From an uncultured Desulfuromonadales bacterium (lineage in GTDB: Bacteria > Desulfobacterota > Desulfuromonadia > Geobacterales > CAIOGM01): a stretch of DNA of 64,000 nt. Positions 2,665-62,328 of the stretch are shown here, in pieces (position 1 is the first letter of the stretch; each line of letters starts with the position of its first letter). The DNA is taken from contig CAIYUY010000021.1 of the NCBI GenBank assembly GCA_903929485.1, positions 830 through 64,829 of the forward strand. Direction: 5' to 3'. A model generated the notes under the pieces. That model did not search any database, was not told the DNA's origin, and saw nothing but the letters and a program-made list of their open reading frames with translations. Position numbers and translations under genes: made by a program.

Positions 2665-2920
2665 GTTAGCTCCATGGGGAGTGAAAACCATGTCACAACA
2701 GTTCGATGCATGATTTCGCGGGTGAAAGAGTATGGTGCGCAAGGGTTCAGGGAGAGAAACTTGCAGCACATTACATCGCAATATTAATTAAATCAACAAC
2801 TATGTTTTTATTTTAAAAATACGTTGCAAGCGGGTGGCGGCTTGACTGAAGGAAGCAGAGCCGAGGCGCAACTCTAGTTGTCATTTTTGAGCGACAGCGC
2901 ATCTGCTTTTTGTCTGACCA

Positions 2921-3060
2921 GCTGATCCTTGCTTCGACTACGCTCAGCACAAGTCGCTTGGGATGACAAGCAAGGGACAGGATGCAGCGCTCCAGGGGCT
3001 CTTCCGCAACCATTGTCAATTATCAATTATCCATTGTCCATTGCCAATGGTACATTGTCC
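2921..3060. repeat. Composite REP-like module (ttcgacTACgctcag motif followed by caattatcaatt/ccattgtccattg short repeats)
   Basis: Related motif pairs recur at 52561-52640 and 53486-53550. The ORFs here (2813-3157) look like repeat translations. Confidence 0.6.
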
Positions 3061-5637: not shown

Positions 5638-5709
5638 ACAAGCAGGCAAGACGGATCAGGCAAAAAAAAGAGCGCCGTAGCGCTCTCTTGGTGACCATGG
5701 AGTTTCGGG

Positions 5710-7176
5710 CTATTTCACCGCCCAGGTGGTTCCCAGGGGAGAATCCAGCAGGGCGATGTTGCGGGAAAGGAGGAGATCGCGAATCTCATCGCTCCTTTTG
5801 AAGTCCTTGGACTTCCGTGCCAGCGCCCGCTCTCCGATCAACCCCTCGATCTCTTCCGTTGAGATTTCCAGTTCCGCCGCCCGCCGCGACTTGATTCGCC
5901 CCAGATATTCAGCCGGTTCCGAAGTGAACAGACCAAGAACCCGCCCTACGTCTATAACGGCCTGACGCGCCGTTGCCAGGATTTCGCACAGGCGATCACT
6001 GACCACCGAATCCTCGGCGGCAACCCGGTTAACGACACGGGTCAGATCAAACAGCCCGGCAATGGCCAGTGCGCTGTTGAAATCATCGTCCATGGCCTCG
6101 CGAAACCGTAATCCAATGTCGCGGACCTTTTCCTCCAGCTCCCTGCCGCCGTCACTTAAGAGTCCGCCGGCCTCCCTTTTCCCCGCGCAAACCCGATCAA
6201 TCTCCGCCAGCCCCTTGTAAATCCTCTCCAGTCCCGCATGAGCCTCGTTGAGATTCTGATCACAGAAGTCGATGGGAGAACGATAATGGGCCGACAGGAG
6301 GAAGAAGCGGAGCACCTCCGCGTCGTACCGTTCCAGCACCTCCTTGATGGTAAAGAAGTTGCCCAACGACTTGCTCATCTTCTCCGAGTTGATATTGACA
6401 AAACCGTTATGGAGCCAGTAGTTGACAAAAGGGCGCCCATTGGCCGCCTCGGATTGGGCGATCTCGTTTTCGTGATGGGGGAAGACCAGGTCCTTGCCGC
6501 CGCCGTGAATATCGAAGGTCTCGCCAAGAAACTTCATGCTCATTGCCGAACACTCGATGTGCCACCCCGGCCGCCCCGCTCCCCAGGGAGACTCCCAGGA
6601 CGGCTCCCCCGGCTTGGCCCCCTTCCAGAGGGCGAAATCCATGGGATTTTCCTTCCGTCCATCCACCTCCACCCTGGCGCCGGCCTGCATCTCTTCCAAA
6701 TTCCGCTTGGAGAGCTTCAGGTAGTCGGCAAAGGTCGCCACCCGGAAATAGACATCCCCCTCCACGGCGTAGGCGTGCCCCTTTTCCACCAGACGAGCCA
6801 CAATGGCGATGATCTCCGGGATATGCTCCGTCGCCTTGGGCTGGTGGGTGGGAAGCTCCAACCCCAGCGCCGCCATATCCTTGTCGAACTCGGCGATGAA
6901 TCTCTCGGAAACCTCGTGCCACGGGATGCCGTCCCGGTTGGCCCGATTGATGATCTTGTCATCAATATCGGTATAGTTCCGGACATAGGTAACAGCGAGC
7001 CCCACATACTTCAGGTAACGGTAGATCATGTCGAAGACCACGTTAGCCCGGGCATGGCCTATATGGCAGTGGTCATAGACCGTGACTCCGCAGACGTACA
7101 TCTTGACCTTTCCCGGCGCCAGCGGGACAAATTCTTCTTTCTTGCCGGAGAGGGTATTATAAACACGCAATGCCAT
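5710..7176 (-). CDS. cysS: Cysteinyl-tRNA synthetase
   Basis: [16 protein letters not shown]..., HIGH-type CHIGHARA and KMSKS are present. The start is set at MALRVY (ATG 7176). Confidence 0.95.
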
Positions 7177-9392: not shown

Positions 9393-9499
9393 ATCCACTG
9401 ATTTCACTGAGTACACTGAGTACACTGAAAAACCGATCAGAAAACGAACCATCCACTGATTTCACTGAGTACACTGAAAAACCGATCAGAAAACGAGCC
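9393..9499. repeat. Tandem flank repeat (2 copies, 58 and 49 bp) of the GxxExxY cassette
   Basis: The unit atccactgatttcactgagtacactgaaaaaccgatcagaaaacga occurs twice. The second copy encodes the last residues and the stop of the GxxExxY gene. Confidence 0.85.
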
Positions 9500-9851
9500 G
9501 TTTAACCTGAAGAGTGGGACTACCAAAATTAAGCAGAAGGCCACGCTTACATCCGGTAGCCTTGAGATAATTCAGAAGCTGAGCATGATCCACACTGGTG
9601 AGATTTCCTCTGGCTTTTAACTCCACGATGATCTCACCATAACAGATGAAATCAGCTCGGTATGAACAACTCAATTGCTTATTCTTATAAAAAACAGGAA
9701 GTTGAACTTCTTTCGAATAAGGAATCAGGTAACTGACAAATTCCAGACACAAAGCCTCGCAATAAACTGCCTCAAGAAAACCGTGCCCCAGCTCCCTGTG
9801 AACTTCCAAGGCGGCTCCGATGATAGCATGAGTCTGAAGATCATTGTCCAT
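9486..9851 (-). CDS. GxxExxY-family protein (PD-(D/E)XK-like)
   Basis: MDNDLQTHAIIGAALEVHRELGHGFLEAVY... contains the GFLEAVY motif and ends ...AQLLNYLKATGCKRGLLLNFG. The 262-aa track ORF (to 10274) is read-through of repeats and ispD antisense. Confidence 0.85.
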   Translation of the reverse strand: MDNDLQTHAIIGAALEVHRELGHGFLEAVYCEALCLEFVSYLIPYSKEVQLPVFYKNKQLSCSYRADFICYGEIIVELKARGNLTSVDHAQLLNYLKATGCKRGLLLNFGSPTLQVKRLVF

Positions 9852-9861
9852 ACCGTCTTTT

Positions 9862-9972
9862 CTCAGTGTCCTCAGTGTCCTCAGTGGACAGGCCTCGGGT
9901 TTTCTCAGTGTCCTCAGTGTCCTCAGTGGACAGGCCTCGGGTTTTCTCAGTGTCCTCAGTGTCCTCAGTGGA
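9862..9972. repeat. 42-bp tandem repeat (about 2.6 copies) with a 9-bp sub-repeat cctcagtgt
   Basis: Units start at 9862, 9904 and 9946. The reverse complement (CCACTGAGGACACTGAGGACACTGAGAAAA) resembles the left flank (CCACTGATTTCACTGAGTACACTGAAAAA), so the flanks are imperfect inverted repeats. Confidence 0.85.
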
Positions 9973-10659
9973 TCAATCTTTAAGAAACGCCTCGGCCAGG
10001 ACCAGATCTTCCGGCGTGGTAATCTTGATGTTCCGGTAGTCGCCCAGGACGATATGCACTTCTCGCCCCATCCGCTCCACCAGGGAGGCATCATCGGTCC
10101 CCAGAAATCCTTCCGCATCGGCAATCTCGTGAGCCGCGCGGATGATACCGTAACGAAAAGCCTGGGGGGTCTGAGCCAGCCAGATGGTTTCCCGATTGGG
10201 GGTCTCCCTGACAATGCCGTCCACCACCACCTTGACGGTATCCTTTGCCGGGACCGCCACCAGCGCCCCGTCATATTTCCGAGCCGTGGCCACGGCGTGC
10301 TCCAGGATATGCCGGTTTATGAACGGGCGGACCCCATCATGAATGAGAATAACGGCGTCCTCATCCGTCCCGTCAATGGCGCGCAAACCGTTCAGCACCG
10401 AATGCTGCCGCTCCTTGCCGCCGGGGACAATGGCCCGCACCTTGGTGAAACCATATCGCTCCACTACTTCCATCCGGCAGTAGGGGATCTCCTGCTCCGG
10501 AGTAATAACGTAGATATCGTCCACAAAGGAGGCGGCCTGAAACAGGGCTATGGTCTGCCCCACGACAGGCATACCTCCGATCCGGAGATACTGTTTGTTG
10601 ATTCCCGCCTGCATCCGTTTCCCCATGCCGGCTGCGGGGATGAGCGCGATCACCTTCAT
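9973..10659 (-). CDS. ispD: 2-C-methyl-D-erythritol 4-phosphate cytidylyltransferase
   Basis: [16 protein letters not shown]...; start set at ATG 10659. Confidence 0.9.
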
Positions 10660-10882
10660 GGATTTTTCCCGGAAACGCACTTAGTTAGGTTGAGGAAGAC
10701 GAAAACACTATAATGCGCCATGGTTAGAGCGGTCAACGAAAAAGTGTCCTTACCCACGTTTTCGAGCCGCAGACAGGTGAAACGCACGGTATGCTCTTGA
10801 GATTCTCGCACCACTATGATAAAAGAATATACTAGTTGTGGTAAATGTAACCGGCAGCATGAGCAGTAAGGAGAATACCCAC

Positions 10883-15767: not shown

Positions 15768-15899
15768 CGGTAGTCACAAATGCGCCGAGCGTGCGCCGAG
15801 CGGTAGAGTAGGGAGCAGGGATTACCCTCCACCCCCTCATCAAACCGGACAAGCAGTTTTCCCGCATCTTATGTGCAGCAGCGCATAATGTGCAAAGCA

Positions 15900-17014
15900 G
15901 GGGGACGCACATAAGTATATAAGTTTCTATTTAAGGAAAATTTGCCATGCCTCGACACTCTCGCATTGATAGTCCAGACGCTTTGCACCACATAATCTGT
16001 CGCGGAATCGAACGTGGTGAGATATTCAGCGACGACATTGATCGGGATGATTTAGTCACCCGATTAGGGGACATCTTGATCGAGACTTCGACACGCTGCT
16101 ACGCGTGGGCCTTGATTCCCAACCATTTTCATTTGTTACTCCGGACAGGAACTCTTCCGATAGCTAACGTCATGCAGCGTCTTCTTACCGGATACGCTAC
16201 TAAATTCAATATTCGACATAATCGCCATGGGCATCTGTTCGAGAATAGATACAAGTCGATCCTGTGCGAAGAAGAGCCTTACCTTTTGGAGTTGGTTCGC
16301 TATATCCATTTAAACCCATATCGAGCCGGCATCGTTTCTTCGCTTAAAGAGTTGCAGACCTACCGATATTGCGGCCACAGTCGTATACTCAGCCTAAATG
16401 TCGAGCCATGGATGAACGTAAAAGACGTTCTCAATCGGTTCGGTAGACGGATCGATGACTCCCGCAAGGCTTACGAACTCTTTATCGGCGAGGGAGTCGG
16501 TCAAGGCAAACGTAATGACCTTATTGGTGGTGGACTTCTTCGCAGCTCAGGTGGGTGGCGTGGAATCCTGACGGCGAGAGAGGCTGGAATCTTTCTTAAA
16601 AGTGATGAGCGGATACTCGGTAGCAATGACTTCGTTGAAGGTGTGCTTCATGCTACGGATGAAAAGTTAGAAATAATCGAGGGTTATCGCACTACGGGTA
16701 TCGATTTGGAGAGGCTCACCAGTATAGTTTCCAAGATGCTCGGGTGCGATGAGAATGATGTAGCAGCACCGGGTCGACAACCTCAGCGAGTCAGAGCCCG
16801 TAGCCTTTTCTGCTTTTGGGCGGTCCGTGAATTAGGGGTTAATGTGACAACCTTGGCCCGTAGATTTGGCTTGACCCAGCCTGCTATCAGTCTGGCGGTT
16901 ATCCGTGGCGAGAAAATGGCCGTAGAAAACGGCTGGAATCTGAAACAAGTTATTGATGCCGGCGGTAACTCTGCTGCTCGATGAGAGAAACTTATATACT
17001 TATGGGCGTCCCCC
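15900..17014 (+). mobile_element. RAYT/IS200-like unit: Y1 transposase gene bracketed by 29-bp inverted repeats
   Basis: The left arm GGGGGACGCACATAAGTATATAAGTTTCT (15900-15928) matches the reverse complement of 16986-17014 with 1 mismatch. Confidence 0.75.
15947..16984 (+). CDS. HUH/Y1 tyrosine transposase (REP-associated, IS200-like) with a C-terminal DnaA-C-like HTH
   Basis: HUH motif PNHFHLLL, catalytic-Tyr region VRYIHLNPYRAG, and a C-terminal FWAVRELGVNVTTLARRFGLTQPAIS. Confidence 0.8.
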   Translation: MPRHSRIDSPDALHHIICRGIERGEIFSDDIDRDDLVTRLGDILIETSTRCYAWALIPNHFHLLLRTGTLPIANVMQRLLTGYATKFNIRHNRHGHLFENRYKSILCEEEPYLLELVRYIHLNPYRAGIVSSLKELQTYRYCGHSRILSLNVEPWMNVKDVLNRFGRRIDDSRKAYELFIGEGVGQGKRNDLIGGGLLRSSGGWRGILTAREAGIFLKSDERILGSNDFVEGVLHATDEKLEIIEGYRTTGIDLERLTSIVSKMLGCDENDVAAPGRQPQRVRARSLFCFWAVRELGVNVTTLARRFGLTQPAISLAVIRGEKMAVENGWNLKQVIDAGGNSAAR

Positions 17015-17163
17015 TTTATATGTGTTGTTAGAGTTGGACAGGGTCAGAAGGGGACATCGTCACGACCGACATCGGTCGATTGCTGAAAACTGTCGGCAGC
17101 CGGATTGTTGTCGCGACCCAAAAAATGAGAATGTTTTGGATGTTGTATCGACAGGTAGTTGCG

Positions 17164-17853: not shown

Positions 17854-17876
17854 ATTTAGGACGCGGATAAACGCCG

Positions 17877-18221
17877 ATGCACGCGGATTTAAAACATGAA
17901 AACGTAACCGATGCTATCCTTTGCTGCTTCTATACCGTTTACAATGTCCTCGGGTATGGATTTCAGGAAAAGGTGTGTACGAAAATGCCCTGCAACATGA
18001 AATCACAAAACGAGGGCTTTCTGCGATAACTCAGTCTCCGATTTCTGTCCATTACGCCGGAACATGATGCGCAACTGTTGAATTATCTAAAAGCAACATC
18101 CATCGAAGTCGGATTACTCCTGAACTTCGGTCCAAAACCGGAATTCAGAAGGAAAGCCTTTGATAATGATCGAAAAAACCAGGAAGCAATTGAGTGGCCT
18201 CACTGCGAAGAAAGAGGTTGA
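17877..18221 (+). pseudogene. Decayed GxxExxY gene flanked by inverted repeats GGACGCGGATAAA (17859-17871) and TTTTATCCGCGTCC (18237-18250)
   Basis: MHADLKHENVTDAILCCFYTVYNVLGYGFQEKV is followed by a +2 frameshift at GTGTGT (the corrected frame reads YENALQHEITKRGLSAITQSPISVHY). An internal deletion follows, then EHDAQLLNYLKATSIEVGLLLNFGPKPEF. Confidence 0.8.
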
Positions 18222-18316
18222 TCCGCGTTTATCAGATTTTATCCGCGTCCAACGATTAAATTTTTCAAGTTCCTTAATGGTTTTTCCCGGATGGTATCCT
18301 GTATTTGCCGTGAATA

Positions 18317-18640
18317 ATGTTGGTTTTTGTGAAATCAGCGTATAGTTGTCAGGTCATGAGCGAACTCTCCGTCACGTTGCTCAAGCACCATCTGGCTGAA
18401 GAGAAGATTATTGACATCCTTGAACAGATTGCCGAAACGTTCAATGTAAGCGCGACTACTCTTGAGACGGTGACACGAACCTGGAAGATCAAGAGAAACT
18501 ATCGCTTTTCCTATTGGGACTGTCTTATCGTTGCCGCAGCACTGGAAAATGATTGTACCCTGCTTGCCAGTGAAGACCTTCAGAATGGTCAAATGCTCGA
18601 TAGGAAACTCAGGATTGTGAATCCGTTGGAGCAGAGGTAA
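18317..18640 (+). pseudogene. PIN-domain C-terminal fragment (5'-truncated vapC-like)
   Basis: YRFSYWDCLIVAAALENDCTLLASEDLQNGQ is a PIN C-terminal half. No N-terminal PIN half and no antitoxin are present. Confidence 0.55.
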
Positions 18641-18695
18641 GACACTACAGCACTTGGCAAATTACTCCCCGCCCCCACTACCCGCCCCCCCCAAG

Positions 18696-18839
18696 GTGAT
18701 TTGCGACAAAAAACATACCAACCGTCTGTCATCCCGAGCAACGCGAAGGATCTGCTTTTCAAACAGAAGCAGATTCTTCGCTATCGCTCAGAATGACATC
18801 TTTTAGAGTTATCAGGGTATTATCTTTGTCGCGAATCAC
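18696..18839. mobile_element. 144-bp MITE-like element, copy 1 (15-bp terminal inverted repeats, 5-bp CCAAG duplication)
   Basis: GTGATTTGCGACAAA...TTTGTCGCGAATCAC is flanked by ccaag (18691-95) and ccaag (18840-44). The second copy is at 61326-61469. Confidence 0.85.
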
Positions 18840-18911
18840 CCAAGGAATCGTTTGACATCCGCCCGGTGTACTGTTAAAAGGAAACCTACAATTTATCCTA
18901 TCGTACAGCTG

Positions 18912-19086
18912 CTTGCGTCGGTCTCCGGAGAGATCCGGGCCAACGCGAGTTAAAAGGGAAGAAGGTGAAAATCCTTTGCTGTCCCGCAACTGTGAACGGT
19001 GATGAAAGCCGCGAAGTACGCCGCTAATTCTTTCAGGAAGGCGCGACGAATTCAGTGACCCGTAAGTCCGGAAACCTGCGCGTTCG
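18912..19086 (+). promoter_or_regulatory. Cobalamin (B12) riboswitch
   Basis: GGTCTCC...GTTAAAAGGGAAGAAGGTGAAAATCC..GCTGTCCCGCAACTGTGA...GCCGCT..GGAAGGC...AGTCCGGAAACCTGC matches the B12-element core as I remember it. It lies upstream of cob genes. Confidence 0.8.
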
Positions 19087-19158
19087 ACCGTTTCACCAAG
19101 CACCCCAGCAGGAGAGGCGACGAAACCTGTCGGCCGTTGTCTCACCCCGGTTTTCGTA

Positions 19159-34754: not shown

Positions 34755-36290
34755 TTATTTTTTTTCGACCGCTCCTTCCTTCCCCTCTTCATGCTTAACC
34801 TTGGGAGGCTGGTGGCAGTCACTGCAATTGGTCTTGTAAATCTCGTCGCCGATATTCACCGGGTGGGTAAATGAGGTCGCGGCGGCGCCCGACGGCACGT
34901 TCTCCTGAACCTGACGCATGACCTTATGGCAGAGGTTGCAATCCTTCCGGATGACATGGCCATCGGCGGATTTATGCTTGTCGTCATGACAGCGGAAACA
35001 GCCGGGGAAGTTGAAGTGACCGATGTTGTTGGGATAGGTCTGCCACGAAGCGTTCATCCTCGGAAAGAAGTTGTGCTCGTAGACCTCCTGACATTCGGCG
35101 ATAGCCTTCAGGATCTGCGCTGACTTCTCCTTGGCCAGGACCGGATAGTTCTTGGCGTAGTAATCGGTAATCCCCTTGTCTATGGCCTCCTTGGCCTCCT
35201 TGGTGGTTTTATAGGCGGTATTGGTCATGAGCCCCACGGCGACTTTCTTGAAATAAGGGAGATTGGTGTCGATATTCCCCGCATGCAAGTTGGCGTCGAT
35301 GGCTTGCCCCGGCGACTTGTAGATGTGGGACGGGCGATTATGGCAATCGATGCAATCCATGATCCGCTTCTCGCCGTGCGCCACCTGCTCCGTGGTGAGC
35401 GGCTTCTCGCCGGTCATGTATTCCCGGATCTTGCCATCCTTCCCCTTGACGCTGATATAGGGTATATCCTGGCGGCTTTTATCCCTGGGGATGTAGGAGA
35501 CCTCCTGGCCGATGTGCCAGTGGACCCCCCCCTCCAGCGGCGTCTCCGGAGTGCCGTTGATAAATATGAGCAGGTCTACTTCCCTTGGGGTGTTTTTCTC
35601 GTTGGGAGCGTAGTGATAGAACTTCTTTATCCGCGGTGAAAAGAATTTCTCGGGCCAATGACACCCCTCGCAGGTATCGCTGGAGGGGCGAAGACTCATG
35701 ACCGGGGTCTCGATGGGGCGGGGGAAGGTGTTGAAGAGGACCGCCAGCATCTGCCGGGTACCGGAGACCTTGGCCTTCACATACCATTGGGCGCCGGGGC
35801 CCACATGGCACTCCACGCACTTCACCTTGGCGTGGGGGGAATGCTGCCACGCCACGAATTCCGGCTCCATGGCGACATGGCAGAGTTTACCGCAGAAAGT
35901 CACCGACTCGGTGAATTCATATCCCTTAACCCCGGACAGGGTGATGAGAACGGAAAAAATAAGGGTCGCCAGGGTGAAAAAGACGGCGATCTTCCTTTTT
36001 TTAGGATCGTTGAAGTCCAGCACCGGATACTTGGGCACGGCGCCGGGGTTGGCGCCGCGTAGCCGGTTCCTGGTCAAAAGGATTCCCACGGGGACCAGGA
36101 ACAGACCGGCAACGAGAATGGCTGGGAACAGGAAATAAATGAGGATACCCAGATACGGATTATTAACCTCACGCATCAACTCGATGGCCGAAAAAGAGAC
36201 TATCAGCCCCGTACCCACCAGGATCAGAATGACCCCGAGAATACTGATCACGTTCCAGACATACACCAAGTTGTTTTTCCAAGCCGCCAT
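34755..36290 (-). CDS. ImcH-like inner-membrane multihaem cytochrome c (3 TM, NapC/NirT-like, 7 haem motifs), paralog 1
   Basis: Three N-terminal TM helices. Haem motifs: CGKLCH (CX3CH), CVECH, CEGCH, CIDCH, CFRCH, CNLCH, CSDCH. NapC-like segment CHVAMEPE. Confidence 0.7.
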   Translation of the reverse strand: MAAWKNNLVYVWNVISILGVILILVGTGLIVSFSAIELMREVNNPYLGILIYFLFPAILVAGLFLVPVGILLTRNRLRGANPGAVPKYPVLDFNDPKKRKIAVFFTLATLIFSVLITLSGVKGYEFTESVTFCGKLCHVAMEPEFVAWQHSPHAKVKCVECHVGPGAQWYVKAKVSGTRQMLAVLFNTFPRPIETPVMSLRPSSDTCEGCHWPEKFFSPRIKKFYHYAPNEKNTPREVDLLIFINGTPETPLEGGVHWHIGQEVSYIPRDKSRQDIPYISVKGKDGKIREYMTGEKPLTTEQVAHGEKRIMDCIDCHNRPSHIYKSPGQAIDANLHAGNIDTNLPYFKKVAVGLMTNTAYKTTKEAKEAIDKGITDYYAKNYPVLAKEKSAQILKAIAECQEVYEHNFFPRMNASWQTYPNNIGHFNFPGCFRCHDDKHKSADGHVIRKDCNLCHKVMRQVQENVPSGAAATSFTHPVNIGDEIYKTNCSDCHQPPKVKHEEGKEGAVEKK

Positions 36291-36661: not shown

Positions 36662-38191
36662 TTACAATTCGGCCCTCTTTTTCCCCTCTTCATGCTGAAT
36701 CTTGGAAGGCTGGTGACAATCGCTGCAGTTGCTTTTGTAGAGTTCGTCGCCGATATCCACCGGATGGGTGAACGAAGTCACGGCGGCGCCGGCCGGAACA
36801 TTTTCCTGAATCTGCCGCATGACCTTATGGCAAAGGTCACAATCCTTCCGGATGACATGGCCATCGGCGGATTTATGCTTATCGTCATGACAACGGAAGC
36901 AACCGGGGAAGTTGAAGTGACCGATGTTATTTGGATAGGTCCGCCATGAGGCATTCATCCGGGGAAAAAAGTTTGTTTCGTAGAGTTCCTGGCTTTCGGT
37001 AATGGCCTGCTGAATCCGCGCGGACTTCTCCCTGGCCAAGACAGGATAGTTCCTGTCATAGTAATCATGTATCCCACCGGCGATGGCGTCCTTGGCTTCC
37101 CCGGTTGTTTTGTAAGCGGCGCTTGTCATGAGTCCCACGGCAACCTTCTTGAAGTAAGGGAGGGAGGCGTCGATAACTCCCGCGTGCAGGTGGGCGTCGA
37201 CGGCCTCCCCCGGCGACTTGTAGATGTGGGAAGGCCGATTATGGCAGTCGATGCAATCCATGATCCGCTTCTCACCATTGGCCGCTTCACCCTTCCCCAG
37301 CGGTTTCTCACTGGTCAGGTACTCCCGTATTTTACCATCCTTCCCCTTGACGGAGATATAGGGGATGTCCTGACGCTTCTTGTCCCGGGAAATATAGGTA
37401 ACTTCCTGACCGATGTGCCAGTGGACCCCACCCTCCAAGGGCGTCTCCGGAGTGCCGTTAATGAAGATGAGCAAGTCGGTTTCCCGGGGGGTGTTCTTCT
37501 CGTTGGGAGCGTAGTGATAGAACTTCTTCAGGCGGGGTGAAAAGAATTTCTCGGGCCAATGGCACCCCTCGCAGGTATCCCTGGACGGGCGGAGGCTCAT
37601 GACCGGAGTCTCAATGGGGCGAGGAAAGGTATTGAAGAGAACCGCCAGCATCTGCCGGGTTCCCGAAGCCTTGGCTCTCACATACCATTTGACACCGGAG
37701 CCCACGTGGCACTCCACGCACTTCACCTTGGCATGAGGGGAGCGCTGCCACGCCACATACTCCGGTTCCATGGCCACATGACAGAGTTTGCCGCAAAAGA
37801 TCACCGACTCGGTAAATTCATACCCCTTGACCGCGGAGAGGGTGATGAGAACCGATAAGACCAAGGTCGCCACCGTAAAAAAAAGAGCGATCTTCCGTTT
37901 TTTCAGATCGTTGAAGTCCAGAACCGGATACTGGGGCACGCCGTCGGGGTCGATGCTGCGTGACCGGTTCCGGGTCAAAAAAATACCGATGGGCACCAGG
38001 AGCATGCCGAAAACCAGAAGCAGCGGAAAAAAGAAATAGATGAGAATACCCAGATACGGATTATGGACCTCGTGCATCACCTCGATGGCCGAAAATGAAA
38101 CGATCAGACCCGTACCCACCAGGGTCAGTGCGAACCCGACGATACTGATCGGGTTCCAGGCATACACCAAGGTATTTCTCCACGCCGACAT
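36662..38191 (-). CDS. ImcH-like inner-membrane multihaem cytochrome c, paralog 2
   Basis: Collinear with 34755-36290 (roughly four-fifths identical by eye), with the same seven haem motifs including CGKLCH. Confidence 0.7.
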   Translation of the reverse strand: MSAWRNTLVYAWNPISIVGFALTLVGTGLIVSFSAIEVMHEVHNPYLGILIYFFFPLLLVFGMLLVPIGIFLTRNRSRSIDPDGVPQYPVLDFNDLKKRKIALFFTVATLVLSVLITLSAVKGYEFTESVIFCGKLCHVAMEPEYVAWQRSPHAKVKCVECHVGSGVKWYVRAKASGTRQMLAVLFNTFPRPIETPVMSLRPSRDTCEGCHWPEKFFSPRLKKFYHYAPNEKNTPRETDLLIFINGTPETPLEGGVHWHIGQEVTYISRDKKRQDIPYISVKGKDGKIREYLTSEKPLGKGEAANGEKRIMDCIDCHNRPSHIYKSPGEAVDAHLHAGVIDASLPYFKKVAVGLMTSAAYKTTGEAKDAIAGGIHDYYDRNYPVLAREKSARIQQAITESQELYETNFFPRMNASWRTYPNNIGHFNFPGCFRCHDDKHKSADGHVIRKDCDLCHKVMRQIQENVPAGAAVTSFTHPVDIGDELYKSNCSDCHQPSKIQHEEGKKRAEL

Positions 38192-50977: not shown

Positions 50978-52351
50978 TCAAGCGCCGATTCTACGTTCAT
51001 CACGGGAACTTTCGCCGCCGCCAGGCACGGTAGAATCGGCGTTGTTCTCCAGCCCAAGCAGATAGTTATAGGCCGACGTCAAACGAATGGTTTTGCCGTT
51101 AACCACCAGTTCACCGTCTTCCTCGTACGTAACGATTTCGCCATATTCCAGTCCGGTTTCATCCATGGCCTTCAACAATGACCGCGTCTCACGGTTACGT
51201 GTTTTGTCATCACTCAGATCCTGCGCCACTTGCACCAGGTGCGTAATCCTTCCTCCCGTGCAGCACGCGAAATCAACTTCAAGACCGTTACTCGTCTTGT
51301 AATAAAACAGTTGGTGGCCGCGTCGTTTCAACTCCAGAAAAATCTGATTCTCCAGCAAATGTCCGCGATTTTCACTGAACCCGAACCTGACGGCGCCCGT
51401 TATTCCGGTATCGACGGTATAAATTTTTTTAGGACTCTTGATCTGCTCTTTCGCCGAAAAAGCATGAAGGTCCAGCGTGAACAGAAGATAGGCGTCACTG
51501 AAATAGCCGAGATATTCCTTCACCGTCTTATCGTTAAGCCCGACCAGGTCGGCAAGTTTATTGAAGCTGTAAAGAGATGAGATATTCGAGGCCAGATAGA
51601 AAAAAAGGTTCTCCAGTTCAACGGCTTTCTTTATGGAAAAGCGGGGAGCGATATCCTGATAGAGGATGTTTCGGGCGTACATTACCAGGATATCTTTCTT
51701 GATGGCGGGGATATCCAGGTTGCAGATCTCGGGAAAACCGCCGAAACGAAGATAGTCGTCAAGCAGTCCTCGCAAGCGGTTGCGCTCCCTGGTCACGGCA
51801 ACGGCATCGGGTAGGTCGACTCCCCTGGCCAGGGCGAATTCAGGGAAAGAAAACGGATAAACTTCCACCGGCAGCGCCCGCCCGGAAAGAAGGGTAATGA
51901 ATTCGGAGGAAAGCAGGTGTGAATTCGAACCGGTAACGATGAACTTGATCTGCTGCTGCTCGTACTTCGCCTTGACGAACAGTTGCCATTCAGGGAAGAA
52001 GTGAACTTCGTCCAGGAAACAGTATATGACTCCTTTCGGCGCAGCCAGCTTGAGATAATCCTCGTAGGCCCGATCAAGGTAAAGGACATCGTTACGATAG
52101 CGACTGAACTGGGGGTTTTCGAGATTCATGAAAAGAATATTTCGGGGAGGAATCCCTTTATCACGTATCAGATGATTAATCGTCTGCCGCGCCAGAGTGC
52201 TCTTCCCGGCGCGTCTCACGCCGACCAGGGCGATAATGTGCGGCAGATCGAGATAATCCTTCACCTTGCCAAGGAGTTCGCGGGGAGTTCCTTCCTGGTA
52301 CGACACCCCTTCCCAGTGAGGATTTTGATCAACAATCACATTTTCAAACAT
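50978..52351 (-). CDS. AAA+ ATPase with DUF4143-type C-terminal domain
   Basis: Walker A GVRRAGKST, Walker B FLDEV, and a C-terminal restriction-endonuclease-like segment (LENQIFLELKRRG...EVDF). Confidence 0.75.
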   Translation of the reverse strand: MFENVIVDQNPHWEGVSYQEGTPRELLGKVKDYLDLPHIIALVGVRRAGKSTLARQTINHLIRDKGIPPRNILFMNLENPQFSRYRNDVLYLDRAYEDYLKLAAPKGVIYCFLDEVHFFPEWQLFVKAKYEQQQIKFIVTGSNSHLLSSEFITLLSGRALPVEVYPFSFPEFALARGVDLPDAVAVTRERNRLRGLLDDYLRFGGFPEICNLDIPAIKKDILVMYARNILYQDIAPRFSIKKAVELENLFFYLASNISSLYSFNKLADLVGLNDKTVKEYLGYFSDAYLLFTLDLHAFSAKEQIKSPKKIYTVDTGITGAVRFGFSENRGHLLENQIFLELKRRGHQLFYYKTSNGLEVDFACCTGGRITHLVQVAQDLSDDKTRNRETRSLLKAMDETGLEYGEIVTYEEDGELVVNGKTIRLTSAYNYLLGLENNADSTVPGGGESSRDERRIGA

Positions 52352-52415: not shown

Positions 52416-52522
52416 TTCGATTCCCCTTGCCGTGTCAAGAAACTCATCCCCGTTCATCCCGCCCCCCAGCCGGTTACGTGACGACAAAACGACAAGAGCT
52501 CCAAGGTTTAAAAAACCCCGGA
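52416..52522. repeat. ~110-nt module shared with 61097-61207 (upstream of both ATPase genes)
   Basis: The first 49 nt differ at 2 positions (ttcgattccccttgccgtgtcaagaaa...ccccgttcatcccgcc). A second conserved block is cgacaagagctccaaggttt.aaaacccc. Confidence 0.8.
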
Positions 52523-59525: not shown

Positions 59526-61064
59526 CTACCCTTCGATCTCGAATCCCACGATGTTCCGGCTCTCCCGGCTGAACTCCACGCCGACCAGGCTAATCGGCTC
59601 ATTGTACCGCCGATACTTCTCGGCATACCCCTTGCTTCGCAGCTGCTCCAGAGCCTTTCCTTCCGGAACCATCTCCACCACCTTGAATTCAAACAGGTAG
59701 ATCCGGCGGTTATACCGCACCGTCATGTCGATCCGCCCCTTGTTGGTGGCGTCCTCCACGATGATCTCCAATCCCAGCGCGGCGAAGTAGCTGTAGAAGA
59801 TACTGGCGTAGTACCCTTCGTATCCCGCCAGCTGATTTTTTCGGTACCAGTCGTGGGGAATGGAGGCGAAGAAGGAGTGGAAGAGCTCCCGCAGGGCCGG
59901 AAGGTCGTCGGCCTTCAGAATGTCGTAGAGTCGGCTGACATTAACCGCGGGAACCATGGGGTCCTGGGATAATTCCCGCAGCAGGGCGTCGTTCAGGCTG
60001 GACTGAACCTCCTTGTTGGGGTAGCGGAGGGTCAGTTCCAACCGGCCGGGGAGGTAGCGGGCAAAGTCGATGGTGAGATAGCCGGTCTGAAACAGCAGCG
60101 CCTCAACGGGGATGTTGTCCACGTCGAAGGTGGAGAGGAGGGATTCGGGGGCCATGATCCGGGCGAGGTCGGGGGTGAACTGCTGACGCCGGGAAAGGAG
60201 TTTGATGAGAAACGTGGGGGTTCCGGTCTCGAACCACCAGGGGCGGAACTGGCGTTGGTCAAACAGCAGCAGCAGGTCGAAGGGGTTGTAGACTGCGTCA
60301 CCGGTCCAGTTGTAGCCGTTGTACCAATCCCTGATCTCGTCGCGATCCAGCCCCTCCAACTCGGGAGCAAAGACGGCGTCAAGATCGCTGTCGGTATAGC
60401 CGCAGATGGCGCTGTATCGTTTGTCAATGGTGATATCTTTCAGGTTATTGAGCCCGGAGAAGAGGCTCACCTTGGAGAACTTGCTGACTCCGGTGAGAAA
60501 GGCGAACTTGACGTGGGCATCCGCCCCCTTGATGACGGAATAGATATCCTTGAGCTTTTCACGCATGTCAAGAGCCGTGTCCGATGATTCGATGTTATCC
60601 AGGATCGGCTTGTCGTACTCGTCAACCAGGACCACCACCCTTTGTCCGAACTTTTGGTGAGTCTTTTGTATCAGTTCCAAAAAACAGCCGGCGTTGCTGG
60701 CGGCTTCACAGACGACGCCCAGCCGCAGCTGATGATGACGGAGCAACTCGGTGATTCTCTCCTTCAGCTCACCGCCGCTTTTCAATACTCCTTCGCCGAA
60801 GCTGAGCCTGATGACCGGGTAGGTTACCGACCAATTCCATTGATCACCTGCCGCCAGCCCCTGGAAGAGGGGCCGGTTTCCCTCGAACAGTTCCTTCAGG
60901 GTGTCCAGAAACAGGCTCTTGCCGAAACGCCGCGGCCGTGAGAGGAAGTAGTACTTCCCCTGGTCGATGAGTTGCAGGACGAAGCCGCTCTTGTCAACGT
61001 AGTAAAAGTCGCCTTCGCGGATCTCTTGCAAGGTCTGAATGCCGATGGGGAGTTTTTTGCGCAT
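59526..61064 (-). CDS. AAA-ATPase-like domain protein with C-terminal PD-(D/E)XK nuclease domain
   Basis: MRKKLPIGIQTLQEIREGDFYYVDKSGFV...LSRPRRFGKSLFLDTL. The C-terminus has GRIDMTV...IYLFEFKV. Confidence 0.85.
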   Translation of the reverse strand: MRKKLPIGIQTLQEIREGDFYYVDKSGFVLQLIDQGKYYFLSRPRRFGKSLFLDTLKELFEGNRPLFQGLAAGDQWNWSVTYPVIRLSFGEGVLKSGGELKERITELLRHHQLRLGVVCEAASNAGCFLELIQKTHQKFGQRVVVLVDEYDKPILDNIESSDTALDMREKLKDIYSVIKGADAHVKFAFLTGVSKFSKVSLFSGLNNLKDITIDKRYSAICGYTDSDLDAVFAPELEGLDRDEIRDWYNGYNWTGDAVYNPFDLLLLFDQRQFRPWWFETGTPTFLIKLLSRRQQFTPDLARIMAPESLLSTFDVDNIPVEALLFQTGYLTIDFARYLPGRLELTLRYPNKEVQSSLNDALLRELSQDPMVPAVNVSRLYDILKADDLPALRELFHSFFASIPHDWYRKNQLAGYEGYYASIFYSYFAALGLEIIVEDATNKGRIDMTVRYNRRIYLFEFKVVEMVPEGKALEQLRSKGYAEKYRRYNEPISLVGVEFSRESRNIVGFEIEG

Positions 61065-61096: not shown

Positions 61097-61207
61097 TTCG
61101 ATTCCCCTTGCCGTGTCAAGAAATTCGTCCCCGTTCATCCCGCCCAGAGCTGGTTACATGGTGTCATGGCGGATACGACAAGAGCTCCAAGGTTTTAAAA
61201 CCCCACG
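61097..61207. repeat. Second copy of the ATPase-upstream module
   Basis: See 52416-52522. The gene-proximal end reads CTTGACACGGCAAGGGGAATCGAA on the minus strand, 33 nt from the ATG. Confidence 0.8.
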
Positions 61208-61550
61208 GAGGTGTCCAAAAGCACCCCGTCGAAGTCTTTCAGTGTGAACGTTCCGTTGCCGCTGGAAACGCCGCTCACGGTGACGGAGAGCGCCGTGACG
61301 AGTCCGGCAATGTTCGCGCCGTAAGGTGATTCGCGACAAAAAACATACCAACCGTCTGTCATCCTGAGCAACGCGAAGGATCTGCTTTTCAAACAGAAGC
61401 AGATTCTTCGCTATCGCTCAGAATGACATCTTTTAGAGTTATCAGGGTATTATCTTTGTCGCGAATCACCTAAGACGCGGCGCCGGTGGAGTACATCTGG
61501 TCGGCGCTGATGTCGAAGACATTGCGACCGGGATTGGTCGGCAGGGCCAT
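61195..61550 (-). pseudogene. Small ORF split by the MITE (MALPTNPGRNVFDISADQMYSTGAAS* / ...YGANIAGLVTALSVTVSGVSSGNGTFTLKDFDGVLLDTSVGF*)
   Basis: Removing the element plus one target-site copy joins the two parts in frame. It is uncertain whether this is a real gene. Confidence 0.35.
61326..61469. mobile_element. 144-bp MITE-like element, copy 2
   Basis: Has perfect 15-bp TIRs (GTGATTCGCGACAAA). It differs from copy 1 at 2 positions and is flanked by gtaag / ctaag. Confidence 0.85.
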
Positions 61551-61728: not shown

Positions 61729-62328
61729 TCAGATCAGTTTCATCTCTGCCAGATAGGCTCGGATAATCTCGGCGCACGTTTCGGCGGAACTGTCCGAGGT
61801 GTCAAAACGGAGTTCGGGAGACTCCGGCGTCTGATAGGGAGAGTCGATCCCGGTGAAATTGGGGATCTCCCCCCGGCGCGCCTTGCGATACAAACCCTTG
61901 GGATCACGACGTTCGCATTCGGTCAGGGGCGTGGCCAGATGGATTTCAATGAATTCTCCTGACGGAAACAACCGGCGCACCAGTTCCCGTTCGGTCCGAA
62001 AGGGAGAGATGAACGCGGTGAGCACGATCAAACCGGCATCCGCCATCAGTCTGGCCACCTCGCCCACGCGACGGATGTTCTCGACGCGGTCCGCCTCGGT
62101 GAACCCCAGGTCCTTGTTGAGCCCGTGGCGAACGTTATCCCCATCCAGCAGGACAGTGTGGCGACCTTGGGTCAGAAGTTGCCGTTCCAGGCAGTTGGCG
62201 ATGGTCGATTTTCCCGAGCCCGACAGGCCGGTGAACCAGAGGACGCAAGGCCGTTGCCCTTTGAGACCGGCCCGCTCGCGCCGACTCACCTCCTCTGTGT
62301 ATTGTCGGACATTGAGAAGGTGGTTCAT
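61729..62328 (-). CDS. cysC: Adenylylsulfate (APS) kinase
   Basis: [16 protein letters not shown]..., [16 protein letters not shown] and ISPF motifs. Confidence 0.95.

Follow-up and report, generated by a model that had tools for sequence, protein, structure and literature searches.

Two 146-bp elements in the stretch of DNA analysed here, 64,000 nucleotides long and called the window below, are best read as copies of a MITE, a non-autonomous transposon of the cut-and-paste type; we put the probability of this reading as a whole at roughly 85%. They belong to a small, previously undescribed MITE family in freshwater Geobacteraceae. The family is presumably Tourist-like, with a DDE transposase of the IS5 / PIF-Harbinger kind acting in trans. 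The contents of the window (multihaem cytochromes, NrfD, an atoC RNA and a cobalamin riboswitch) fit Geobacteraceae/Desulfuromonadales.

Two copies, their ends and their loci

The original prediction had placed two near-identical copies at 18696-18839 and 61326-61469, differing at 2 of 144 positions, and this was confirmed. Alignment of the 144-mers, with 50-bp flanks included, gave 98.6% identity between the copies, with two substitutions (144-mer position 7, T/C; position 40, C/T) and unrelated flanks. The prediction had also named a longer segmental duplication as an alternative. When this was checked, the shared sequence was found to extend only 3 bases leftward and 1 base rightward of the 144-mer. 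In the repeat search of the window, the pair appears as a direct repeat of 152 nt at 98% (D6) and the ends as inverted repeats (I9 and I18). The copy pair is beyond the reach of chance. The elements and their ends are as follows, with corrected boundaries.

18695..18840, + strand: MITE copy 1 (type A, see below), 146 bp
61325..61470, + strand: MITE copy 2 (type A), 146 bp
18692..18694, no strand: left target duplication of copy 1, CAA, the same as 18841-18843
18841..18843, no strand: right target duplication of copy 1, CAA
61322..61324, no strand: left target duplication of copy 2, TAA
61471..61473, no strand: right target duplication of copy 2, TAA
18695..18710, + strand: left terminal inverted repeat of copy 1, GGTGATTTGCGACAAA, 1 mismatch against the right repeat
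18825..18840, - strand: right terminal inverted repeat of copy 1, TTTGTCGCGAATCACC on the + strand
61325..61340, + strand: left terminal inverted repeat of copy 2, GGTGATTCGCGACAAA, perfect against the right repeat
61455..61470, - strand: right terminal inverted repeat of copy 2, exact reverse complement of 61325-61340

The inverted termini, given as 15 bp in the prediction, are real but one base longer. The 16-bp repeats (GGTGATTYGCGACAAA / TTTGTCGCGAATCACC) agree at 16/16 positions in copy 2 and at 15/16 in copy 1, and with mismatches the repeat stretches to ~25 bp (22/25; consensus GGTGATTCGCGACAAAGAAYATACC). The flanking 5-mers likewise have the letters first quoted (CCAAG/CCAAG for copy 1, GTAAG/CTAAG for copy 2), but the duplication is of 3 bp and not of 5 bp. 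The 5-mers of copy 2 mismatch because they take in terminal bases of the repeat, G and C, along with the triplet. A 5-bp duplication was ruled out: it is imperfect at copy 2 (GTAAG versus CTAAG), whereas TAA/TAA is perfect, and the 26 ends described below favour 3 bp. A 3-bp duplication with a preference for TWA, instead of a 5-bp one, changes the likely transposase superfamily. There are zero ORFs inside the 146-bp element, in agreement with the predicted absence of coding capacity. The copies thus have the features of a MITE, being shorter than ~500 bp and non-coding, with inverted termini and a target duplication that varies between copies at unrelated loci.

The neighbours of copy 1 are a PIN-domain gene (18356-18640) on one side and, on the other, a cobalamin riboswitch (18898-19097) with a histidine-phosphatase/PabB operon behind it. 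A possible -35 element, TTGACA, was seen by eye at 18852-18857, 9 bp past the end of copy 1, where the consensus scanner called no promoter; an effect of copy 1 on expression of the cobalamin-riboswitch operon is conceivable. Promoter and terminator scans at both loci gave no signal inside the element. Copy 2 occupies a 665-bp gap between an AAA-ATPase/PDDEXK_9 gene (59526-61064, - strand) and an APS kinase gene (61729-62328, - strand). Deleting 149 bp at copy 2 fuses two - strand frames into a 68-codon ORF (61550 to 61195). Disruption of a gene by copy 2 is nonetheless unsupported, because this ORF lacks a Pfam match and its sole database match is its own truncated 55-aa product. To the right of copy 2, window 61563-61720 matches both ends of a PDDEXK_2 gene region in a related contig, L059 (3700-3829 and 4760-4789), with ~930 bp missing in the window; we therefore regard the surroundings of copy 2 as a decayed remnant.

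Several other repeats were observed in the window. A 49-nt direct repeat, 96% identical, occurs at 52416-52464 and 61097-61145, just upstream of two - strand ATPase genes (AAA_14/DUF4143, 50978-52351; AAA-ATPase_like/PDDEXK_9, 59526-61064), and could be a shared leader or promoter. A Y1_Tnp (IS200-like) domain forms the N-terminal part of a 345-aa protein (15947-16984), and on either side of its gene stands one of two 30-nt inverted repeats (15899-15928 and 16986-17015; 97% complementary); the whole, 15899-17015, may represent a unit of RAYT-like or IS200-like type. At 9858-9983 there are three 42-nt repeats in tandem (TTTTCTCAGTGTCCTCAGTGTCCTCAGTGG...), inside or beside ORFs 9486-10274 and 9844-10713, and tandem paralogous multihaem cytochrome genes (34755-36290 and 36662-38191) have ~85% DNA identity over 300 nt (repeat D3). 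A 392-bp unit at 17859-18250 ends in imperfect 30-nt inverted repeats rich in ATCCGCG and contains, by eye, an apparent fragment of a GxxExxY/PDDEXK_3-type gene. We take it for another repeat or a point of structural variation, since two of the contigs considered next, L027 and L090, change context inside or beside it.

An exact copy of the APS kinase beside copy 2 is encoded on GCA_903958335.1 (CAJBSS010000216.1), on GCA_903944945.1 and on lake metagenome scaffolds. All population contigs retrieved, from several samples, carry the insertion at one and the same base or stop within the element (L023-L026 and L028-L033, at 99.75-100% identity, L089 and L090), and contigs of the window's own population also break within copy 1. 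The two copies thus mark sites of breakage or mis-joining in assemblies of this lineage. The comparison of empty sites in sister strains, proposed in the original prediction, gave no empty site among the contigs retrieved: those with the exact APS kinase, PabB and PIN proteins are all filled or end inside the element, and the intergenic DNA of relatives is non-homologous. In APS kinase relatives at 85-92% identity, the downstream DNA is unrelated; the closest PabB is only 75% identical, too distant for site comparison; and the His_Phos ORF as delimited here has no database record. Contig L027 (= L088; ENA ERZ27313210 k141_802838) joins window 64000-61323 to 18844-17868 via a single MITE. It represents either a 42.6-kb deletion (18695-61324) between direct copies or a k=141 assembly chimera (megahit), and the chimera is favoured because the contig switches context at the second repeat, near 17868. 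In a separate observation, the last ~55 nt of L089 are Illumina adapter (AGATCGGAAGAGCACACGTCTGAACTCCAGTCAC) fused inside MITE copy 1, an assembly artefact in the public record.

Elements with the same ends and different interiors

The window copies have relatives elsewhere. An exact-pattern scan (GTGATTNGCGACAAANNNNATACC) over one genome per species, 185,579 representative genomes in all, returned 22 loci, 16 of them in two uncultured Geobacteraceae MAGs, VK3_bin-0517 and A14_bin-2059 (VK3 and A14 below). With ~4 chance matches expected, six loci were evident chance matches, in unrelated phyla and with nothing in common beyond the pattern. The search for further copies that had been suggested was thus productive: short non-coding elements with the same ends were found at many unrelated loci in other genomes, and each has a duplication of its own. 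Across Geobacteraceae MAGs and lake metagenomes, the same inverted repeats enclose at least three kinds of short element whose interiors are unrelated.

Type A: interior is the hairpin core of the window copies; 146 bp in the window
Type A in VK3, L013: 96% identical to the window copies over 121 nt, right end degenerate
Type A in VK3, L008: 23-nt insertion in one arm
Type A in A14, L002, L009, L011, L016 and L022: 76-85% identical, right repeats diverged
Type A flanks: TAA/TAA in L011, TAA/TAA in L016, TTA/TTA in L022, TCA/TAG in L009
Type B, unrelated interior, 216-226 bp: L020 4017-4232 (216 bp) and L048 (226 bp), TAA/TAA in both
Type C, unrelated interior, 316 bp: L037 and L042, TTA/TTT, right repeat with 3 mismatches

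Six-frame translation of types B and C gave no long frame, and the hairpin motif of type A is absent from both. Type B is represented in a JGI lake metagenome (L048) and in VK3, where at least nine ends, 97-100% identical to one another, have differing flanks and many contigs stop inside the element. Such copies, with contig breaks inside them, are as expected of an active multi-copy repeat. L013 was considered as an ortholog of the copy 2 site, with which it has 11 nt of left flank in common, yet the two are not orthologous.

The flanks of these elements define the target. In the trinucleotides just outside the repeat at 26 distinct ends, T comes first in 25, A or T second in 25 and A third in 25; 25 ends adjoin TWA, and one base farther out C or G is favoured. 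In complete elements, a left TTA pairs with a right TTA and a left TAA with a right TAA. This agreement of left and right triplets identifies the triplet as a direct target duplication that lies outside the inverted repeat, and five complete elements besides the window pair show such a duplication of TAA or TTA. Counting against this pattern, the duplication of copy 1 is CAA, which departs from TWA, and the flanks of L009 (TCA/TAG) and of type C (TTA/TTT) are unequal, both with degenerate right ends.

In L011, a second element begins directly after the type A copy, the TAA being common to both. In it, a terminal repeat leads into a further interior, the fourth kind (GGTGATTCGCGACAAAGAGTTGACCGGTTTTTGTATGTGGC...), which the contig end truncates (5662-5720). 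From its sequence, this segment is a candidate end of an autonomous IS.

The hairpin core and its 27-nt motif

The core of the element had been described as a long imperfect hairpin. The hairpin is real, with a predicted folding energy of -39.6 kcal/mol as DNA (z = -9.4) and -69.1 kcal/mol as RNA (z = -11.2), but the 70-bp core is more than that: it is an inverted pair of a widespread 27-nt unit, GTCATYCTGAGCGNAGCGAAGRATCTG. The doublets in the window are as follows.

18728..18797, + strand: core of copy 1, inverted pair of the 27-nt GTCATYCTGAGC...GAAGRATCTG motif
61358..61427, + strand: core of copy 2, inverted pair of the 27-nt motif, left arm C..G and right arm T..A
2880..2967, no strand: free-standing degenerate core doublet without terminal repeats, ~75% identical to the MITE core over 67 nt

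The degenerate doublet sits in an AT-rich intergenic stretch. Outside the window, motif sites are listed in L015 (185-252), L055 (302-376), L056 (4558-4590) and L060-L087. The site in L015 is a doublet 5 bp outside a type B element, that in L056 is a lone arm without terminal repeats, and a doublet, likewise without terminal repeats, is found in a Phocaeicola massiliensis plasmid. With a degenerate one-arm pattern, 34 matches were obtained in 28 IMG/VR viral contigs (~0.01 expected); these are single, inverted or tandem and lie mostly between co-directional genes. The motif is thus common to Desulfobacterota, Bacteroidota and many viral contigs, and the core is unmatched in GenBank phages. Four of the viral contigs (L065, L074, L077 and L079) have two motif copies with a spacing of exactly 2037 nt, both of them upstream of a gene start, and are probably one phage sampled four times.

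Paired positions within the 27-nt unit covary. In 20 distinct units, positions 6 and 22 are C-G (11) or T-A (9) with no mismatch, and positions 11 and 17 are G-C (12), A-T (5), G-T (1) or other (2). Pairing is found in 98.6% of cells, and the observed covariation was reached by 0/500 shuffles, the viral units among them having been picked by a pattern that fixes the other columns. In the window element, each arm pairs better internally than with its partner at the variant C..G / T..A positions. The fold implied for a single arm would be a 5-bp stem, G/A opposite A/G, and a GC-closed trinucleotide loop. For single 27-nt arms, the nearest-neighbour folding energy was no better than that of shuffles, so the argument for this small hairpin comes only from the covariation. 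Neither the element nor the motif had an Rfam match at the gathering score or a relevant one at E <= 10, and a literature search found no paper containing the motif sequence strings. The translations of the motif, VILSEAKDL and, on the reverse strand, RFAQNDK, are, we take it, those of spurious ORFs in many genomes.

Because the motif is also free-standing, in the same genome and in very distant ones, type A seems, as judged from its sequence, to be chimeric, with IS-type ends around a resident REP-like doublet. It is possible, although we regard it as doubtful, that the 27-nt unit is an undescribed structure-constrained element and that the type A MITE is a chimera spreading this unit by happenstance. 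As a single-stranded DNA or RNA hairpin, the unit could serve as a substrate of HUH enzymes (as REPs do), as a priming or termination signal, or as a protein-binding site. The core motif is the part most deserving of follow-up, over the MITE as such. A hairpin with compensatory changes across phyla and viral contigs, standing outside Rfam, is of wider interest and worth a study of its own.

Mobilisation, rival explanations and related systems

The terminal repeats, the fixed-length duplication and the strong target triplet together point to a DDE transposase acting on the ends. Since the element is non-coding, this enzyme would work in trans, and since the interiors of types A, B and C are interchangeable, the ends would be the determinant of mobility. 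In the proposed mechanism, a transposase encoded elsewhere would bind both repeats and draw the ends of the element together. Insertion would then occur at a TWA trinucleotide (rarely TNA/CAA) via cuts staggered by 3 bp, and gap repair would leave the 3-bp duplication. The interior would be dispensable cargo, which in type A is the inverted pair of the 27-nt hairpin motif.

A preference for TNA/TWA is found in IS1031-type groups (ISfinder) and in the Tourist MITEs of the plant literature, and GG-initial repeats with a near-invariant TWA target are typical of IS5/Harbinger. Duplications of 3 bp are also made by other IS families (IS30 and some IS3). The 3-bp duplication at TNA/TWA that characterises IS5/PIF-Harbinger is present here, with TWA at 25/26 ends and equal paired flanks. 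We lean, slightly, towards a DDE enzyme from the IS5 family (its IS1031/IS427/ISL2-like groups) or from the eukaryotic PIF/Harbinger relatives, a placement drawn from the 3-bp TWA duplication and the GG-initial repeats and from nothing else. The duplications of canonical Harbinger transposons are 3 bp long, and these transposons are related to the IS5 family and cluster with it (PMC12730594).

As the original prediction had stated, no transposase for the element is identifiable in the window: a Pfam search of 40 window ORFs gave no DDE transposase, the sole transposase-like match being the Y1_Tnp protein at 15947-16984. Nor did an autonomous IS with such ends turn up in the 185,579 representative genomes, JGI metagenomes, IMG/VR, plasmids or the window. 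The genome, metagenome and viral scans and plasmid BLAST with the element and with a 35-nt end returned only MITEs or chance matches and no parent IS. This absence carries little weight, because MAG assemblies commonly lose IS copies. The predicted recent mobilisation in trans is upheld as to a MITE mobilised in trans; its recency is not, given that both insertions are present in every population contig retrieved. The family does suggest that a TWA-targeting transposase is, or recently was, active in uncultured freshwater Geobacteraceae.

Four other explanations were weighed. The elements might be a MITE with a 3-bp duplication that is moved by another DDE family, such as IS30 or the IS3 group with their 2-3-bp duplications, and not by IS5/Harbinger. 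We consider this rather unlikely. The family assignment is taken solely from duplication length, target and repeat termini, no parent having been found, and IS30-family duplications measure 2-3 bp (ISfinder), but TWA at 25/26 ends and GG-initial repeats fit IS5/Harbinger, and IS3 ends are TG...CA, unlike the ends here. It is very improbable that we are dealing with a REPIN-like pair of REP hairpins whose single-stranded DNA is mobilised by a Y1 (RAYT or IS200-like) transposase, for example by the product of the Y1_Tnp gene 1.7 kb upstream of copy 1. That gene is indeed present, and the core pairs two inverted units of a short hairpin motif that, like REPs, also occurs singly, in inverted pairs and in tandem. 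Y1 transposition, however, yields neither terminal inverted repeats nor duplications, whereas both are consistently present here; types B and C carry the same ends without the hairpin motif; and the 30-nt inverted repeats around the Y1_Tnp gene are unrelated to the element and were seen nowhere else in the DNA compared.

Slightly less probable still is a functional structured RNA or cis-regulatory element, such as a terminator or an sRNA, that was duplicated at two places and is immobile. The very stable predicted fold (z of about -11 as RNA) and the position of copy 1, 55 nt upstream of the cobalamin riboswitch, would suit it. The terminal repeats and the hairpin doublet fully explain this stability, however, and there is no Rfam match even at E <= 10 and no promoter- or terminator-like signal; the genomic contexts of the copies are unrelated, and the flanking duplications point to insertion. 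Finally, an origin of the copies by segmental duplication or assembly artefact, without transposition, can draw on contig L027, which runs from the DNA right of copy 2, via one element, into the DNA left of copy 1 and shows that the copies do become connected by assemblers or by recombination. It is effectively refuted by flanks that diverge straight after the 3-bp duplications, by the recurrence of both loci at 99.75-100% identity in independent assemblies from several samples, and by the family members in other genomes. The reading as MITE copies is therefore retained. With it, Geobacteraceae gain an undescribed MITE family, whose terminal-repeat string is absent from the searchable literature; as an ordinary kind of selfish DNA, the family as such is of modest interest.

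Among known systems, REP and REPIN-RAYT sequences resemble the core motif, which occurs singly, in inverted doublets that form long hairpins and in tandem arrays, mostly in intergenic DNA. They differ in that the whole element here has inverted termini and target duplications, in that the motif is conserved across phyla whereas REPs are typically lineage-specific, and in that the nearby Y1 gene is not flanked by the core motif, the flanks of Y1_Tnp being unrelated to it. The mini-hairpin DNA d(GCGNAGC) is a known biophysical motif and not a family of genomic elements (PMC13037366, PMC3201870). Most centres of the 27-nt motif likewise read GCGNAGC, with a trinucleotide loop closed by C-G and flanked by G/A opposite A/G; the loop in the arms of the window copies, unlike this, is AAC or GATA.

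Two bacterial MITEs are close in kind. Nezha, a cyanobacterial MITE of ~130-170 bp whose repeats are common to ISNpu3, is by its description similar in size, in a stable hairpin-like fold, in mobility deduced by bioinformatics and in having no transposase partner in the host genome; it differs in its documented empty and filled sites and its named IS partner, neither of which was found here (PMC3184786). Chunjie, from Geobacter uraniireducens Rf4 (Chen et al. 2008), is given in the summaries of that work as 178-235 bp long and A+T-rich, with 21-bp repeats and 9-bp direct repeats (PMC3184786, PMC10969869). As summarised there, it is, like the element here, a Geobacteraceae MITE with a very stable predicted fold and multiple copies. 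The element here is 146 bp long with 16-25-bp repeats and a 3-bp TWA duplication, and on the description of Chunjie in these summaries the two families are distinct. The closest likeness is to Tourist-like MITEs, the IS5 family (IS1031, IS427 and ISL2 groups) and PIF/Harbinger: the elements are short and non-coding, with repeats that start with GG, a 3-bp TWA/TNA duplication and subfamilies that have common ends and different interiors. The element described here, whose membership in this group we infer, is set apart from them by the REP-like hairpin doublet that it carries.
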